Assembly (NCBI GenBank): GCA_964442335.1
Contig: CAYTZI010000001.1
Span: 1 to 39,530 of the forward strand
Source of the DNA: an uncultured Dehalococcoidaceae bacterium
GTDB taxonomy: Bacteria; Chloroflexota; Dehalococcoidia; Dehalococcoidales; RBG-16-60-22
DNA: 39,530 nucleotides
Direction: 5' to 3'
The position numbers were made by a program, and so were the translations under genes. Shown here piece after piece: positions 2 to 5,715 of this stretch. Under the pieces are notes generated by a model, which searched no databases, was not told where the DNA came from, and worked only from the letters and a program-made list of their open reading frames with translations. How positions within the stretch are numbered: the first letter of the stretch is position 1; each line of letters starts with the position of its first letter.

Positions 2-1900
2 GTAGGCCAGGTCACCGAATATGCGCGGGGCCTCCCCTGCGTGGCAATAGCACGTGATTATAAATTCATGTGCTCCGACCCCGGCCAGGACCTGATCAGG
101 AACGACATCAGGGAACAGGGATTGAACCGCGTCGTGGTGGCCTCGTGTTCACCCCGGTTACACGAGCCTACCTTCCGGCGGACCGTAACCAGCGCCGGCC
201 TGAACCCTTATCTCTTCGAGATGGCTAACATCCGGGAGCAATGCGCCTGGGTGCACCAGGACAAAGAAAAGGCCACCGAAAAAGCCAAAGCGCTGGTAAA
301 CGCCGCTGTGAGGCGCGTTTTCTACCACGAAGCGCTGGAGACCAAGGAGGTTTCCGTTAATCCTCACACGCTGGTCGTGGGTGCGGGCATCGCCGGTATC
401 CAGGCAGCCCTGGAAATAGCCGATGCCGGCCATAAGGTCTATCTGGTGGAACGGGAGCCGTCGATAGGGGGCAATATGGCCCGGCTGGACAAGACCTTCC
501 CCACCCTGGACTGTTCCGCCTGAATATTAACACCGAAGATGGCCTCGGTGAGGTCACACAAAAACATCGAGCTGATGACGTACAGCGAGGTGGTGGAGGT
601 ATCCGGCTATGTGGGCAATTTCCAGGTGAAAATAAGAAAGAAGCCGCGCTACGTGGACGACAGCAAATGCACCGGCTGCGGCACCTGCCAGGAAAAGTGC
701 CCGATAAAAGTAGACAATGAATTTGACGCCGGCATCGGCAAGAGAAAAGCAATCTATACGCCTTTCCCCCAGGCAGTGCCGAATGTGCCCGTTATCGACA
801 CGGAGCACTGCACCTATTTCCTTAAGGGCAAGTGCCGAGCCTGTGAGAAGTTCTGCGAAGCCAAGGCGATCGACTATGAGCAGAAAGAGAAAGTAATCGA
901 GGCGGAAGTGGGCAACATTATCGTCACCACCGGCTTCGACTCGTTCGACCCGTCGGTGATGGTACAGATGGGCTATGGCCAGTACGCGAACGTCATCACC
1001 GGCATCCAGTTCGAGAGGATGAGCAACGCTTCAGGGCCGACCGACGGCAAGATACTGCTTAAAGACGGCACCTCTCCAAAGAGCGTCGCCATCCTGCACT
1101 GCATCGGCAGCCGCGATACCAACTATCACAAATACTGCTCGCGGGTCTGCTGCATGTATTCCCTCAAGTTTTCTCACCTGCTTCGAGAAAAAGTGCCGGA
1201 AGCGACTGTTTACCAGCTTTATATCGACATGCGCTGCGCCGGCTCCGGCTACGAGGAGTTCTACGAAAGACTACAGGAGGAAGGCGTTAATTTTATCCGC
1301 GGCAAGGCGGGTGAGGTCACCGATATCCCGGAAAAGCCTGAAGAAAAGGGCAAGCTAATGGTCATCGTGGAGGACACGCTCATAAGGCGTAAGCGGCGCC
1401 TGCCGGTGGACATGGTCGTTTTAAGCTGCGCGCTGGAGCCGCGCTCGGACGCGGAAAGCGTGGCCAGGACATTCTCCCTGAGCCGCAAGGCGGATGGCTT
1501 TTTCCTGGAAAAGCACCCCAAGCTCGACCCGGTGGCCACCACCACGGACGGCGTTTTCATCGCCGGCTGCTGCCAGAGCCCGAAGGACATCCCGGACACG
1601 GTAGCGCAGGCGTCGGCGGCGGCAGCCAGGGTCCTGGCGATGATAACCAAGGGCAACGTGGAGCTGGAATCGACCACCGCCGTCGTAGACGAGGAACGCT
1701 GCGCCGGGTGCAAGATATGCATCGGGCTATGTTCCTACAAGGCTATCACCTACGATGAAGAAAAGAAGGTAGTCCACATCAATGAAGCGCTCTGTAAGGG
1801 CTGCGGCACCTGTGTGGCCGCCTGCCCCAGCGGCGCCATTAAAGGCCGGCATTTTACCACCGAGCAGATCATGTCCGAGATTGAGGGGGTATTAGCATGA
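2..1900 (+). CDS. hdrA: Heterodisulfide reductase subunit A-like FAD/FeS protein, 5'-partial, with an in-frame TGA (521-523) read as selenocysteine
   Basis: The frame is open from the window edge ([29 protein letters not shown]...). Track ORFs 41..523 and 539..1900 share a frame (both 2 mod 3) and are separated only by TGA 521-523, in ...FPTLDCSA-[TGA]-ILTPKM..., where HdrA proteins carry a conserved Cys. GxGxxG FAD motif (VVGAGIAGI). Ferredoxin-type motifs [23 protein letters not shown] and [12 protein letters not shown]. Confidence 0.85.
531..550 (+). promoter_or_regulatory. SECIS-like hairpin downstream of the hdrA UGA
   Basis: CACCGA (531-536) - agatggcc - TCGGTG (545-550). A perfect 6 bp stem with an 8 nt loop, starting 8 nt after TGA 521-523. 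Confidence 0.45.
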
Positions 1901-2319
1901 GCTTTGAGCCGAAGATTGTTGGTATTTTGTGCAACTGGTGCTCCTACGCCGGCGCTGACCTGGCCGGCACATCACGCAAGAAGTACGCTCCCAACATACG
2001 GGTGGTACGCGTCATGTGCTCCGGAAGAGTTGACCCAACCTTCGTTCTGAAAGCCTTTAAAGGGGGAGCCGATGGCGTTCTTGTCTGCGGCTGACATCCC
2101 GGTGAATGTCATTACCAGGATGGTAATATGAAGACAGCCCGAAGGATGCCTTTATTAAAGAAGATGCTTTCCCAGTTCGGGGTTGAAGACGGGAGGGTGC
2201 GCCTGGAATGGGTCTCGGCGTCAGAGGGAGACCGTTTTGCCAGCGTCGTCAACGAAATGACGGAACAGGTAAGGCAACTGGGACCTTTCAGTCGTGATGG
2301 AGGTGGTCAGAATGCCTAA
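1897..2319 (+). CDS. mvhD: MvhD-type (methyl-viologen-reducing hydrogenase delta subunit / FlpD family) protein with an in-frame TGA (2092-2094) read as selenocysteine
   Basis: Track ORFs 1897..2094 and 2128..2319 share a frame (1 mod 3). The joined product [24 protein letters not shown]...GADGVLVCG-[TGA][11 protein letters not shown]...LEWVSASEG fits the MvhD signature ([14 protein letters not shown]-HxG-D/E-CHY), with the TGA at the Cys position. ATGA start/stop overlap with hdrA. Confidence 0.85.
2111..2127 (+). promoter_or_regulatory. SECIS-like hairpin downstream of the mvhD UGA
   Basis: ATTACC (2111-2116) - aggat - GGTAAT (2122-2127). A 6 bp stem with a 5 nt loop, starting 17 nt after TGA 2092-2094. 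Confidence 0.4.
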
Positions 2320-3307
2320 ACCGAAACTGGCCCTGTACTGGGCGGCTTCCTGCGGCGGCTGCGATGTGGCCGTCCTCGATACCAATGAAAAAATACTGGA
2401 TATCGCCAGCCTGGCCGACATAGTGTTCTGGCCGATAGCCCTTGACTTTAAATACCACCACGTCGAGGCCATGGAAGACAAAAGTATTGATTTATGCCTC
2501 TTTAACGGGGCTATCAGGAGCACCGAGCAGGAGAAAATCGCCAGGCTGCTCCGCGAGAAGTCGAAAGTGATGGTGGCTTTCGGCGCCTGCGCCTGCTTCG
2601 GCGGCATACCAGCGCTGGCGAATTTCAGCGACCGCAACGAAATATTCCAGCGGGTTTATATCGAGGCGCCATCAAACAATAACGAGCCCGGAACCGTCCC
2701 GCTGGCACAAACCAGGGTTGCCGAAGGAGAGCTGGAACTACCGGAGCTATTCGACACGGTGCTGACGCTGGCGCAGGTGGTCGACGTGGAATACTTCGTG
2801 CCGGGCTGCCCGCCCCCGCCGGACCTAATTCTAAAGCTGGTGGGCCTCTTTGCCAGTGGTCAACTGCCTCCGGCAGGCTCGGTAATCGCTTCGGACAAGA
2901 CGCTCTGCGACGAGTGCAAGCGCGTCAAAGAGGAAAAGAAGATAACCAGGCTTTACCGGCCCCACGAAATTAAACCCGACCCCGAGAAGTGCCTGCTGGA
3001 GCAGGGTATAATCTGCTGCGGTCCGGCTACCCGGGGAGGGTGCGGCCTGCGCTGCATCGAAGCCAATATGCCCTGCCGCGGCTGCTTCGGGCCGCCGCCG
3101 GGGGTCATCGACCAGGGCGCCAAGCTCGTCAGCGCCATCGCTTCCATTTACCAGGCGGATAACGAGGACGAGATTAAGAAAATGGTGAACGAGGTGGTCG
3201 ACCCGGCGGGTACTTTTTACAGATTCGGGCTGGCCGATTCGATGCTGCGGAGAAAGCGCCTTAACAAGAGCCAAGGGAGGACATCTGATGAAGAAGATCA
3301 GCATTGA
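2312..3307 (+). CDS. mvhG: [NiFe] hydrogenase small subunit, group 3 (MvhG-like)
   Basis: N-terminus [22 protein letters not shown], and Cys clusters (GACACFGG, VPGCPPP, CDECK, CCGPATRGGCGLRC, CRGCFGP) typical of cytoplasmic group 3 small subunits. I prefer ATG 2312 (GGAGGTGG ends 5 nt upstream) over the track start at 2294. Overlaps the mvhD stop. Confidence 0.85.
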   Translation: MPKPKLALYWAASCGGCDVAVLDTNEKILDIASLADIVFWPIALDFKYHHVEAMEDKSIDLCLFNGAIRSTEQEKIARLLREKSKVMVAFGACACFGGIPALANFSDRNEIFQRVYIEAPSNNNEPGTVPLAQTRVAEGELELPELFDTVLTLAQVVDVEYFVPGCPPPPDLILKLVGLFASGQLPPAGSVIASDKTLCDECKRVKEEKKITRLYRPHEIKPDPEKCLLEQGIICCGPATRGGCGLRCIEANMPCRGCFGPPPGVIDQGAKLVSAIASIYQADNEDEIKKMVNEVVDPAGTFYRFGLADSMLRRKRLNKSQGRTSDEEDQH

Positions 3308-4760
3308 CCCTATAACCAGGCTTGAGGGACACGGCAAAATAGAGATATTCCTCAATGACGATGGCGATGTCGAGAATGCCTATCTACAGATACCGGAGCT
3401 ACGGGGATTTGAAAAGTTCTGCGAGGGCAGGCCGGTCGAGGAGCTGCCCCGCATCGTAACGCGTATCTGCGGGGTCTGACCAGGGGCACATCACATGGCC
3501 TCGTGCAAGGCCACCGATGTCGTCTACCACGCCGAACCTCCTCCGGCCGGTAAAAAGCTGCGTGAGCTTTTCTACTGCGCTCACATGCTTCATTCCCATA
3601 TCGCACATTTCTATGCCCTGGCCGCCCCCGATTTCGTCCTGGGCCCGATGAGCGACCCGGCGAAGAGGAATATCCTGGGACTGGTGGAAAAGGTGGGCCT
3701 TAGCACCGGTACCGAGGTAATAAAACACCGCGCTTACGCCCAGGAAATCCAGGCCGTTATCGGCGGCAAGGCGACCCACCCCGTGTGCGGTCTTCCCGGC
3801 GGCATGAGCAAGCCTATAACCGAGGAGGAGCGCCGGGACTTTGAAGAGAAAGCGAAGTCGCTGGTGGAGTTCGCCAGGTTCAGCCTGACGCTCTTCAACG
3901 ACCTGGTGCTTGAAAATAAAGAATATCTGGACTTAATTACCGGCGATATCTACTCCATGAAAAGCTATTACATGGGCATGGTCGATACGAGCAACAAAGT
4001 TAACTTCTACGAGGGAGACATCCGGGTGGTCGACCCCGACGGTAAAGAGGCTGCCAGATTTAAGGCCACCGAATATCTGGACTATATCGCCGAGCATACC
4101 GAACCGTGGTCTTACCTGAAGTTCCCCTTCCTGAAGAAGGTCGGCTGGAAAGGCATGGTCGAGGGCAAGGAAAGCGGTGTATACCGCGTCAGCCCTCTCG
4201 CCCGGCTCAACGCCGCCGACGGCATGGCCACGCCACTGGCGCAGGCCGAATACGAAAAGCTGTACCAGACCCTCGGCGGGAAACCGGTCCACGCCACGCT
4301 CGCCTTCCACTGGGCCAGACTGGTCGAGATACTTTACGCCGCCGAACACCTCCTGGAACTGTGCCAGGACAAAGAAATCACCAGCCCCGACGTGAGGGTT
4401 ATACCCACAGCCACCCCGGACGAGGGTATCGCGGCCGTAGAAGCGCCGCGAGGAACGCTGATACACCACTATAAAACGGACGAGAACGGCATCGTCCAGA
4501 AGGTAAACCTGATTGTAGCCACGGCGCACAACTACCCTGCCATGAACATGTCGATAAGGAACGCGGCCCGGGGGCTTATCAAGAAGGGGCATGAAGTCTC
4601 AGAAGGATTGCTGAACATGGTGGAAATGGCCTTTCGCGCCTACGACCCGTGTATGGCCTGCGCCACACACACACTGCCAGGGCAGATGCCCCTCGAGGTG
4701 ATTATCTACAACAGCCGGGGAGAAGAAACCAGACGGCTAAGCCGGTGTTTACGCGCTTAA
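3288..4760 (+). CDS. mvhA: [NiFe] hydrogenase large subunit, group 3 (MvhA-like), with an in-frame TGA (3477-3479) read as selenocysteine in the N-terminal metal-binding motif
   Basis: Track ORFs 3288..3479 and 3495..4760 share a frame (0 mod 3). MKKISIDPITRLEGHGKIEI..., L1 motif RICGV-[TGA]-PGAHHMAS, and C-terminal motif YDPCMACATH (4641-4670) followed by a short extension. GGGAGGA RBS upstream of ATG 3288. Confidence 0.85.
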
Positions 4761-4787: not shown

Positions 4788-5252
4788 ATGCAGACATTAG
4801 TGCTCGGGCTCGGCAATCCAATCCTCAGGGACGACGGCATAGGACCGCGGGTCGCCAGAGAGCTCGAAGGGAAACTGATCGAAAACGTAACGGTTGCTGA
4901 GACCAGCCTGGCGGGCCTGAACCTGCTCGACCTGATGGTTGGCTATGATAAAGTCATTATTATAGATGCCATTAAGACCGATAAAGGTAGACCGGGACGG
5001 ATTTATCACCTTAATGTTGACGATTTTCAGTTTACGCGGCATGCCGCCTCAACCCATGACATCAACCTGGCGACCGCACTCGAACTCGGTAAAAAAATGG
5101 GACTTTTACTGCCGCAGCAGATAGATATACTTGCTATCGATGTAGAGGAAACCGACCATTTCGGCGAAGAACTCACGCCAGAGGTGGAAGAGGCGATTCC
5201 TGTGTGTCTGGAAATGATCCTTGCTGAACTAACAGCCGGCAACATCGCCTGA
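4788..5252 (+). CDS. Hydrogenase maturation endopeptidase (HybD/HycI/FrhD family)
   Basis: MQTLVLGLGNPILRDDGIGPRV... carries the GNxxxxDDGxG signature. Located directly downstream of the large subunit, whose C-terminal extension it would cleave. Confidence 0.85.
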   Translation: MQTLVLGLGNPILRDDGIGPRVARELEGKLIENVTVAETSLAGLNLLDLMVGYDKVIIIDAIKTDKGRPGRIYHLNVDDFQFTRHAASTHDINLATALELGKKMGLLLPQQIDILAIDVEETDHFGEELTPEVEEAIPVCLEMILAELTAGNIA

Positions 5253-5281
5253 CCGGCCATGCTGCCGCTAATTTTAGCAGG

Positions 5282-5467
5282 TCAAGCCAGATTGCTTCTT
5301 ACTCTCGCGAGGGCTTCCTTCCGTGCCCTGGCCCGTCTCCTCGCCCTTGCACGGCTCTCTTTCCAGACCGCCCAGAGACCCGAAACGTTGATAAACCAGA
5401 TGAAAACGGCTGGGAACAAAATGACCGGTATTGCGATGGCTATGGCTATGATTGCTCCGGTTGTCAT
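5282..5467 (-). CDS. Small (61 aa) membrane protein with an Arg-rich C-terminal tail, function unknown
   Basis: MTTGAIIAIAIAIPVILFPAVFIWFINVSGLWAV (one or two TM segments), then KESRARARRRARARKEALARV. Strong RBS on the minus strand (GGAGGTGG, 7 nt before the ATG at 5467). The competing + strand ORF 5259..5558 has no comparable signal. Confidence 0.55.
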   Translation of the reverse strand: MTTGAIIAIAIAIPVILFPAVFIWFINVSGLWAVWKESRARARRRARARKEALARVRSNLA

Positions 5468-5715
5468 TGTTTTCCACCTCCCTCAAGATGTCCTGGAAAT
5501 TCAATTTGCTATTACGGTCGACTCCCCTTCATATTTCCACATTAAGCATATAATGTGAGCGTTAATACACGCTTCCGCTGGAGTGCTTATTTCTTTGCAG
5601 TATTAATGCCTATCAGTAACTATAAACAGATTTCGTAATTGTAGTATACAATTATATTTCTCGTTTCAATGGTGAAAGTGGCCGGCACCAGCTTAACCAT
5701 CAGGACCTGCTAAAT

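Follow-up and report, generated by a model that had tools for sequence, protein, structure and literature searches.

An in-frame UGA, very probably read as selenocysteine, at the second cysteine of the N-terminal nickel-binding motif of a group 3c hydrogenase large subunit from a Dehalococcoidaceae bacterium

Results

An in-frame UGA interrupts the first nickel-binding motif of mvhA

The stretch of DNA analysed here, 39,530 nucleotides (nt) from an uncultured Dehalococcoidaceae bacterium (assembly GCA_964442335.1, contig CAYTZI010000001.1; hereafter the window), carries on its forward strand an mvhA-like gene for the large subunit of a [NiFe] hydrogenase of group 3c type (3288–4760; 490 codons including UGA codon 64). 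Translated in one frame, the gene is open from end to end except for one internal stop, codon 64. The codons at 3462–3491, CGT ATC TGC GGG GTC TGA CCA GGG GCA CAT, read R-I-C-G-V-*-P-G-A-H and constitute the L1 nickel-binding motif, R-I-C61-G-V-U64-P-G-A-H, with the UGA (3477–3479; predicted selenocysteine, Sec64) at the position of the second, Ni-Fe bridging cysteine. The translation around the stop is ...PRIVTRICGV*PGAHHMASCKATD..., and the C-terminal end is ...AFRAYDPCMACATHTLPGQ... The L2 motif, Y-D-P-C455-M-A-C458-A-T-H (4641–4670), contains only cysteines, encoded by TGT or TGC (codon 455 being TGT), and the extension that follows it is presumably removed by a maturation protease.

The product thus combines an L1 motif of the form RxCGxCxxxH, the second cysteine of which is the UGA, with a complete DPCxxCxxH, and its gene is otherwise intact through L2. 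This is the N-terminal CXXU arrangement, with the UGA exactly at the second cysteine, and not the canonical [NiFeSe] one, where selenocysteine (Sec) comes first in a C-terminal DPUxxC; codon 455 of the window gene encodes cysteine. The original prediction had described both a UGA at the second cysteine of R-I-C-G-V-[UGA]-P-G-A-H and an all-cysteine C-terminal YDPCMACATH, and reading and translation of 3288–4760 reproduced the two motifs and their coordinates exactly.

The program that lists open reading frames (ORFs) cuts the gene in two, at 3288–3479 (63 residues) and 3495–4760 (421 residues). Taken literally, these two ORFs would mean that the TGA is a true stop, leaving either a pseudogene or two polypeptides (residues 1–63 and Met70–490), as in the VhuA/VhuU split of Methanococcus. 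Besides the output of the gene callers, an ATG lies 15 nt 3′ of the TGA, and large subunits divided in nature do exist, NCBIfam having separate VhuA and VhuU models. Such a division would, however, lose residues 64–69 (U-P-G-A-H-H), among them one of the four metal ligands. The conservation that bears further on this explanation is given with the hairpin below.

The gene product is an MvhA-type large subunit

When the stop is replaced by cysteine, the translation matches the Pfam family NiFeSe_Hases (E 2e-37). Its best match in the PDB is MvhA of 5ODC (E 4e-121), followed by Vhu of 9SFI (E 4e-118), whereas structures of Group 1 enzymes match much more weakly, at about 1e-42 to 2e-42. The alignment to MvhA (5ODC chain F) is free of gaps over residues 1–103, so that codons 61 and 64 correspond to the two cysteines of RICGIC in that protein and the TGA is not offset from the ligand cysteine. 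Among NCBIfam models the runner-up reaches 185 bits and VhuA, the best, 443 bits. This score lies below the VhuA equivalog cut-off of 800 bits, and the gene is therefore a bacterial homologue of archaeal VhuA rather than its equivalog. The nearest database proteins are large subunits from Dehalococcoidia and other Chloroflexota annotated as “F420-non-reducing hydrogenase large subunit” and are 79–87% identical. The PDB matches, the NCBIfam models and the operon (described below) agree in supporting the group 3c, MvhA-type assignment made in the original prediction.

The TGA recurs at the same column in other genomes

Genes with TGA at this column are termed Sec-type below, and those with a cysteine codon Cys-type. 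Recurrence of the TGA in related genomes had been proposed as a check, and a DNA pattern, MGNNTNTGYGGNRTNTGANCNNNNKCNCAY, corresponding to R-x-C-G-[IVM]-UGA-[PSTA]-x-[AS]-H, was scanned against species-representative genomes, one genome per species. At least 119 loci match. Combining the pattern scan with tblastn, at least 62 of them encode a hydrogenase large subunit and have the TGA precisely at the second N-terminal cysteine column; at least 54 of these are group-3c-like, 55–90% identical to the window protein and spread over at least seven named phylum-level groups. Going by their record titles, the group-3c-like genes belong to Chloroflexota (Dehalococcoidia, Anaerolineales), Krumholzibacteriota/Latescibacteria, Acidobacteriota, Nitrospirota (including Thermodesulfovibrio), Thermodesulfobacteriota/Syntrophaceae, Myxococcota and Firmicutes, the last represented by Desulforudis, Ca. 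Desulfopertinax, Peptococcaceae and Desulfotruncus alcoholivorax DSM 16058. All complete Sec-type genes continue for about 420 codons beyond the TGA to an intact, all-cysteine DPCxxCxxH.

A search of called proteins gives a different picture. All 119 of the closest full-length homologues have cysteine at the column, within R[IL]CGVCPxAH (KICGVCPGAH in P0091), and TGA is a single substitution away from their cysteine codon, as expected if the window TGA were a sequencing or assembly error for TGC or TGT. Yet two further assemblies (L243 and L244; Logan SRR9710561 and JGI metagenome 3300031255) contain this mvhA with its TGA, with a single mismatch over 1473 nt, and at the same column TGA occurs, together with a matching hairpin, in dozens of other genomes. 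The all-cysteine top list is moreover a database artefact: gene callers split the Sec-type genes, for which reason their fragments rank low in a protein search. On the short contigs L243 and L244 mvhA is likewise cut into 63 and 421 residues, and the window product appears in the protein database solely as the 421-residue fragment P0019. We therefore rejected the lone mutation that the all-cysteine top 120 proteins had seemed to indicate, since Sec-types are stored as fragments, and regard an error in the sequence as barely credible.

Metagenome contigs were scanned with TGA, TGC or TGT permitted at the column. Among the 120 matches listed, 3 have TGA and 117 TGY; among these listed matches the Sec form accounts for a minority of the motif class, roughly 2–3%.

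The pattern scan also returned loci of other kinds. Eight HysA-like Group 1 large subunits among the matches listed (L030, L071, L037, L041, L076, L061, L039 and L029), from Desulforudis, related Firmicutes, Syntrophomonas and one Chloroflexia metagenome-assembled genome (MAG), have TGA at the same N-terminal cysteine column. The seven complete genes end in an all-cysteine FDPC[IL]ACA[VI]H, and L029 is interrupted; the product of L030 scores 712.7 bits against NCBIfam NF033181 (cut-off 600). Desulforudis sp. Tu-874 has two HysA-like copies (L030, L071) and one group 3c CXXU gene (L003). These genes probably correspond to the Group 1 sequences that later papers report from the review by Baltazar et al. 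(2011). Two Acidobacteriota Sec-types from MFD-series MAG assemblies, L057 and L081, align in several shifted pieces, which probably reflect assembly frameshift errors rather than pseudogenes. About 20 Acinetobacter loci (e.g., L004–L007, L021 and L042) share the translated context ...ICGV*AMSHQS.. and were rejected as hydrogenases, having no tblastn match to the query; there the TGA probably terminates an upstream gene that overlaps the start of the next one.

A predicted SECIS element follows the UGA

Minimum free energy (MFE) folding predicts a selenocysteine insertion sequence (SECIS) element at 3484–3525. In its upper stem, 3496–3501 pairs with 3508–3513 (UGGCCU/AGGCCA; 6 base pairs, bp) around the hexaloop CGUGCA (3502–3507), which has G at loop position 2 (3503), and the lower stem joins 3484–3492 with 3516–3525. 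The upper-stem hairpin lies 19–36 nt 3′ of the UGA, and, with the U of the UGA as nt 1, the loop G is nt 27. In the bSECISearch model the apical loop of a bacterial SECIS reportedly lies about 16–37 nt from the UGA, and the mvhA hairpin falls within that spacing. The SECIS elements of Group 4 [NiFeSe] genes have a G first or second in the apical loop (Takano et al., 2026; PMC13582414), as does CGUGCA.

The hairpin follows the TGA across homologues. A hexaloop N-G-N-N-N-A that starts at nt 26–27 and is closed by a stem of 5 bp or more was found in all 56 unique Sec-types, whereas only 1 of 91 Cys-type relatives has a hairpin with G at loop position 2 and 73 of the 91 have no hairpin. Within the 63 nt starting at the TGA, nt 21–36 read GGCCUCG[G/U]G[U/C]AAGGCC in 52 of the 56; in four Nitrospirota Sec-types the hairpin has another sequence and its register is shifted (GCGUC-AGUUAA-GGCGC), and there too loop position 2 is G. 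The local hairpin has an MFE of −9.3 ± 0.6 kcal/mol in Sec-types, compared with −4.8 ± 2.9 kcal/mol in Cys-types. Likewise, third-codon positions across nt 19–39 hold 1.48 bits of information in Sec-types and 0.31 bits in Cys-types, the corresponding values for the flanks (nt 4–18 and nt 40–63) being 0.69 and 0.38 bits in Sec-types and 0.44 and 0.31 bits in Cys-types. Prediction of SECIS folds at 3480–3560 had been proposed as a check, and the predicted element at 3484–3525 with its loop G provides one that is specific to Sec-types.

These data also bear on the possibility of a true stop at codon 64. The synonymous conservation has the pattern of an RNA element and is unlike decay, and both halves of the gene are conserved in at least 54 species with their L2 motifs intact. 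The codon from which a separate second polypeptide would start, codon 70, is ATG in 68% of Sec-types and otherwise CTG or TTG. Taken with the loss of residues 64–69, these observations make a pseudogene or a pair of polypeptides very unlikely.

At the protein level, the column most strongly associated with the Sec form is residue 73 (codon 3504–3506), where Sec-types have G, C or V and Cys-types have T, A or V, an association that arises because codon 73 supplies nucleotides of the SECIS loop. On the 5′ side of the UGA, residue 57 (3456–3458) is V in 40 of 44 Sec-types and T in 154 of 182 Cys-types, a difference that may be phylogenetic or functional.

The operon contains two further genes with in-frame UGA codons

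Directly 5′ of mvhA, and on the same strand, lie hdrA, mvhD and mvhG, which is the group 3c gene arrangement. The hdrA-like gene (2–1900, its 5′ end beyond the window; NCBIfam HdrA2, 844 bits) has an in-frame UGA at 521–523 (TLDCSA-U-ILTPK), the classical HdrA Sec site, followed by a hairpin, GGCCU-CGGUG-AGGUC, at 541–555. The mvhD-like gene (1897–2319; NCBIfam VhuD, 138 bits, and HdrA2 C-terminal domain, 190 bits) has its own in-frame UGA at 2092–2094 (VLVCG-U-HPGECHY), where Sec is known from MvhD/VhuD. Both HdrA and MvhD/VhuD count among the established selenoprotein families and have motifs of the CxxU type (PMC13188914). The hdrA hairpin has the same spacing as that of mvhA and nearly the same sequence, which suggests that the two genes could share one SelB recognition motif. 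The hairpin predicted for mvhD (GGUGA-AUGUCA-UUACC, nt 10–25 after the UGA) has another sequence and another spacing than those of hdrA and mvhA.

The small subunit is encoded by the mvhG-like gene (2294–3307; Pfam Oxidored_q6; NCBIfam VhuG, 222 bits). Its listed GTG start is overlapped by mvhD for 26 nt (2294–2319), and mvhG in turn overlaps the start of mvhA by 20 nt (3288–3307); the two overlaps would fit translational coupling along the operon. On the 3′ side of mvhA lies a gene for a HycI/HyaD-type hydrogenase maturation endopeptidase (4788–5252, forward strand; Pfam HycI; NCBIfam TIGR00072, 124.8 bits against a cut-off of 47.45). A 99-residue ORF directly 3′ of the protease gene (5259–5558) has no match in Pfam.

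TGA terminates 8 of the 26 well-supported genes of the window, so there is no general reassignment of UGA, and genetic codes 4 and 25 were ruled out on this ground. The remainder of the window consists of housekeeping genes (dxs, pgk, gpmI, tpiA, miaA, dapF, hflX and glpX), together with a branched-chain amino-acid ABC transporter and four ordinary tRNAs.

Sec-types and Cys-types are interleaved

A neighbour-joining tree was built from 44 Sec-type and 182 Cys-type sequences. Parsimony on this tree requires at least 12 Sec/Cys changes, most of them within Dehalococcoidia, a clade in which Sec-types and Cys-types are interleaved. The nearest Cys-type relative, P0001 (locus L240), is 87% identical and has TGC at codon 64. 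Despite the TGC, a hairpin identical to that of the window mvhA is present in L240 (6190–6243), where UGA still interrupts hdrA and mvhD of the same operon; hdrC- and hdrB-like genes also lie upstream. L240 looks like a recent switch from Sec to Cys that left the SECIS behind as a fossil, the alternative being a pre-adapted sequence. The same pattern, with Cys-type relatives that retain the hairpin, was found in Group 4 (Takano et al., 2026; PMC13582414).

Such easy exchange is also what might be seen if the UGA were read as cysteine by a tRNA-ReC or allo-tRNA, or as another near-cognate residue, giving an ordinary all-cysteine enzyme: the two forms interconvert often (the changes counted above), and the nearest relative combines TGC with the same hairpin. 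Within the window, however, there is no UGA-decoding tRNA. A hairpin of the SelB type with its loop G, strictly tied to TGA, would be needless for a tRNA that inserts cysteine, and HdrA and MvhD of the same operon carry UGA at classical Sec positions. We regard decoding as cysteine or a near-cognate residue as improbable, if marginally less so than a true stop.

Discussion

Probable selenocysteine at a bridging position

The TGA at codon 64 of mvhA is very probably read as selenocysteine, judging from the Sec-type-specific hairpin and the recurrence across phyla, which together back the putative Sec of the original prediction. With a high degree of confidence, though short of certainty, we propose the fuller reading that UGA64 is recoded to give a full-length CXXU group 3c subunit with a bridging Sec64, working with Sec-bearing MvhD and HdrA partners. 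In this scheme the hairpin at 3496–3513 would act as a bacterial SECIS and recruit SelB with Sec-tRNA(Sec), UGA64 would be decoded as Sec and a 490-residue large subunit would result, to be matured by the adjacent HycI-like protease. The subunit would then function with MvhG and with the Sec-containing MvhD and HdrA in a cytoplasmic group 3c hydrogenase that is presumably electron-bifurcating.

In [NiFe] sites each CxxC contributes a terminal Ni ligand, its first cysteine, and a Ni-Fe bridge, its second. It follows that Sec64 would be a bridging selenolate: taking the place of the second cysteine of RxCGxC, it would provide one of the two Ni-Fe bridging chalcogenolates, with Cys458 as the second bridge and Cys61 and Cys455 as terminal Ni ligands. 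An N-terminal CXXU Sec has likewise been predicted to bridge the Ni and Fe atoms (Takano et al., 2026; PMC13582414), and the bridging role assigned to this residue in the original prediction is thus backed both by established structural knowledge and by that report.

Several observations weigh against Sec insertion at codon 64. A search of the 39.5-kb window found none of selA, selB, selC (tRNA-Sec) or selD, and the Sec machinery is therefore deduced from the three UGA genes. That cysteine may be inserted at UGA in genomes encoding tRNA-ReC is a caveat raised by Takano et al. (2026; PMC13582414). The hairpin alone is no proof of recoding, since the closest Cys-type relative keeps it. The stem is almost invariant, so that covariation is minimal, and RNAalifold found no consensus structure in 56 ungapped Sec-type sequences, probably because of this invariance and of the Nitrospirota register shift. 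Single-sequence folding gives weak z-scores, −1.18 over 84 nt and −1.71 over 54 nt; they were not taken as evidence by themselves, and the hairpin census and synonymous-site information were used instead. Rfam returned no SECIS family, either at the gathering threshold for the whole window or at E ≤ 10 for positions 400–3700, a null that is uninformative because all three UGA sites went unmatched, the classical ones of HdrA and MvhD included. What the sequences show is the codon, its column, its recurrence, the hairpin tied to Sec-types and the operon; Sec insertion, the bridging geometry and any catalytic consequence are inferred.

Novelty and significance

To our knowledge, the sole systematic survey of N-terminal Sec concerns Group 4, and we know of no natural enzyme with Sec at the bridging position that has been studied so far. 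Earlier sequences with the substitution have nevertheless been reported. According to PMC13582414, Baltazar et al. (2011) had noted N-terminal CXXU in two sequences of Group 1 and one of Group 3, and Takano et al. (2026) added 27 CXXU sequences of Group 4. Evans et al. (2021; PMC8020662) term the natural N-terminal Sec cases “purported examples”; citing the same review by Baltazar et al., they give the substituted bridging cysteine as C579, which is at odds with the N-terminal CXXU reported from that review in PMC13582414. In the table of a 2026 review, MvhA/VhuA/VhuU are listed only with a UxxC motif (PMC13188914). Our literature search, in which Baltazar et al. (2011) figures as cited by later papers, found no paper on a CXXU hydrogenase in Dehalococcoidia.

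The original prediction had left novelty open. The position itself turns out to have been reported already and is common in homologues, so that most of the novelty is gone while the biology is intact; what stands is that the homologues are mostly split ORFs and are not annotated as selenoproteins. The bridging-Sec position was thus known from sequences before, and the window gene adds a group 3c case. The breadth of the CXXU form in group 3c looks under-catalogued. That CXXU group 3c hydrogenases make up a widespread, largely unannotated natural class, in at least 54 species and at least seven phylum-level groups, is a proposition for which we see the chances as evenly balanced.

Sec-type mvhA genes are kept in databases as fragments of 63 and about 420 residues. 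Hydrogenase surveys based on called proteins will therefore undercount or misjudge them, and the anaerobes affected include Dehalococcoidia, Krumholzibacteriota and Acidobacteriota, among others. All characterised [NiFeSe] hydrogenases known to us have selenium on a terminal nickel ligand, and it is by this terminal-ligand selenium that their O2 tolerance and bias towards H2 production are explained. Selenium that bridges Ni and Fe in nature, if confirmed, would test whether such explanations generalise, and would constitute a second natural Ni-Se-Fe geometry, comparable with the engineered C79U variant of E. coli hydrogenase 1 (Hyd-1). A catalogue of group 3c CXXU enzymes, or the biochemistry of a natural bridging selenolate, would be new.

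Comparison with known systems

The canonical [NiFeSe] hydrogenases (HysAB of Desulfomicrobium baculatum and Desulfovibrio vulgaris; VhuA/VhuU and FruA of Methanococcus) belong to the same superfamily and have the same Ni-Fe site as the window enzyme; in them, and by the present reading in the window enzyme too, one of the four cysteine ligands is exchanged for Sec through UGA recoding. Their Sec, however, opens the C-terminal UxxC and is a terminal Ni ligand, whereas the window protein has Cys455 there. The MvhAGD-HdrABC complex of Methanothermococcus thermolithotrophicus (5ODC) and Vhu of Methanococcus maripaludis (9SFI) share with the window the set of hdrA, mvhD, mvhG and mvhA. They differ in being archaeal, with a 5ODC MvhA that is all cysteine and a Vhu in which Sec lies in VhuU, at the C-terminal motif.

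We take C79 of Hyd-1 to be the window's codon-64 column, from the shared RICGVC and the HyaB sequence; the numbering fits positions 76 and 79 in PMC8020662. The Hyd-1 C79U variant thus has Sec at the second cysteine of RICGVC and is catalytically competent, oxidising H2 at 13% of the native level, more than the other three Sec variants, although it is almost inactive at 10% O2 (PMC8020662). Sec at the bridging position is therefore compatible with catalysis. C79U is nonetheless an artificial variant, made by UAG suppression in an O2-tolerant Group 1d enzyme, and is uninformative on the natural context.

The closest counterparts are the CXXU variants of Baltazar et al. (2011; as cited in PMC13582414) and of Takano et al. 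(2026), in which Sec likewise replaces the second cysteine of the N-terminal CxxC and the C-terminal motif is all cysteine. The Group 4 genes of Takano et al. and the window mvhA also agree in the G at apical-loop position 1 or 2 of the SECIS, and the Group 4 CXXU genes show the same mosaic of Sec and Cys forms, in which Cys-type relatives keep SECIS-like hairpins. The window gene differs in belonging to Group 3c, in its Mvh/Hdr linkage and in its Dehalococcoidia-type sequence, the survey of Takano et al. being of Group 4 only; and where a single Group 3 sequence had been cited from Baltazar et al. before, at least 54 group-3c-like species are found here.

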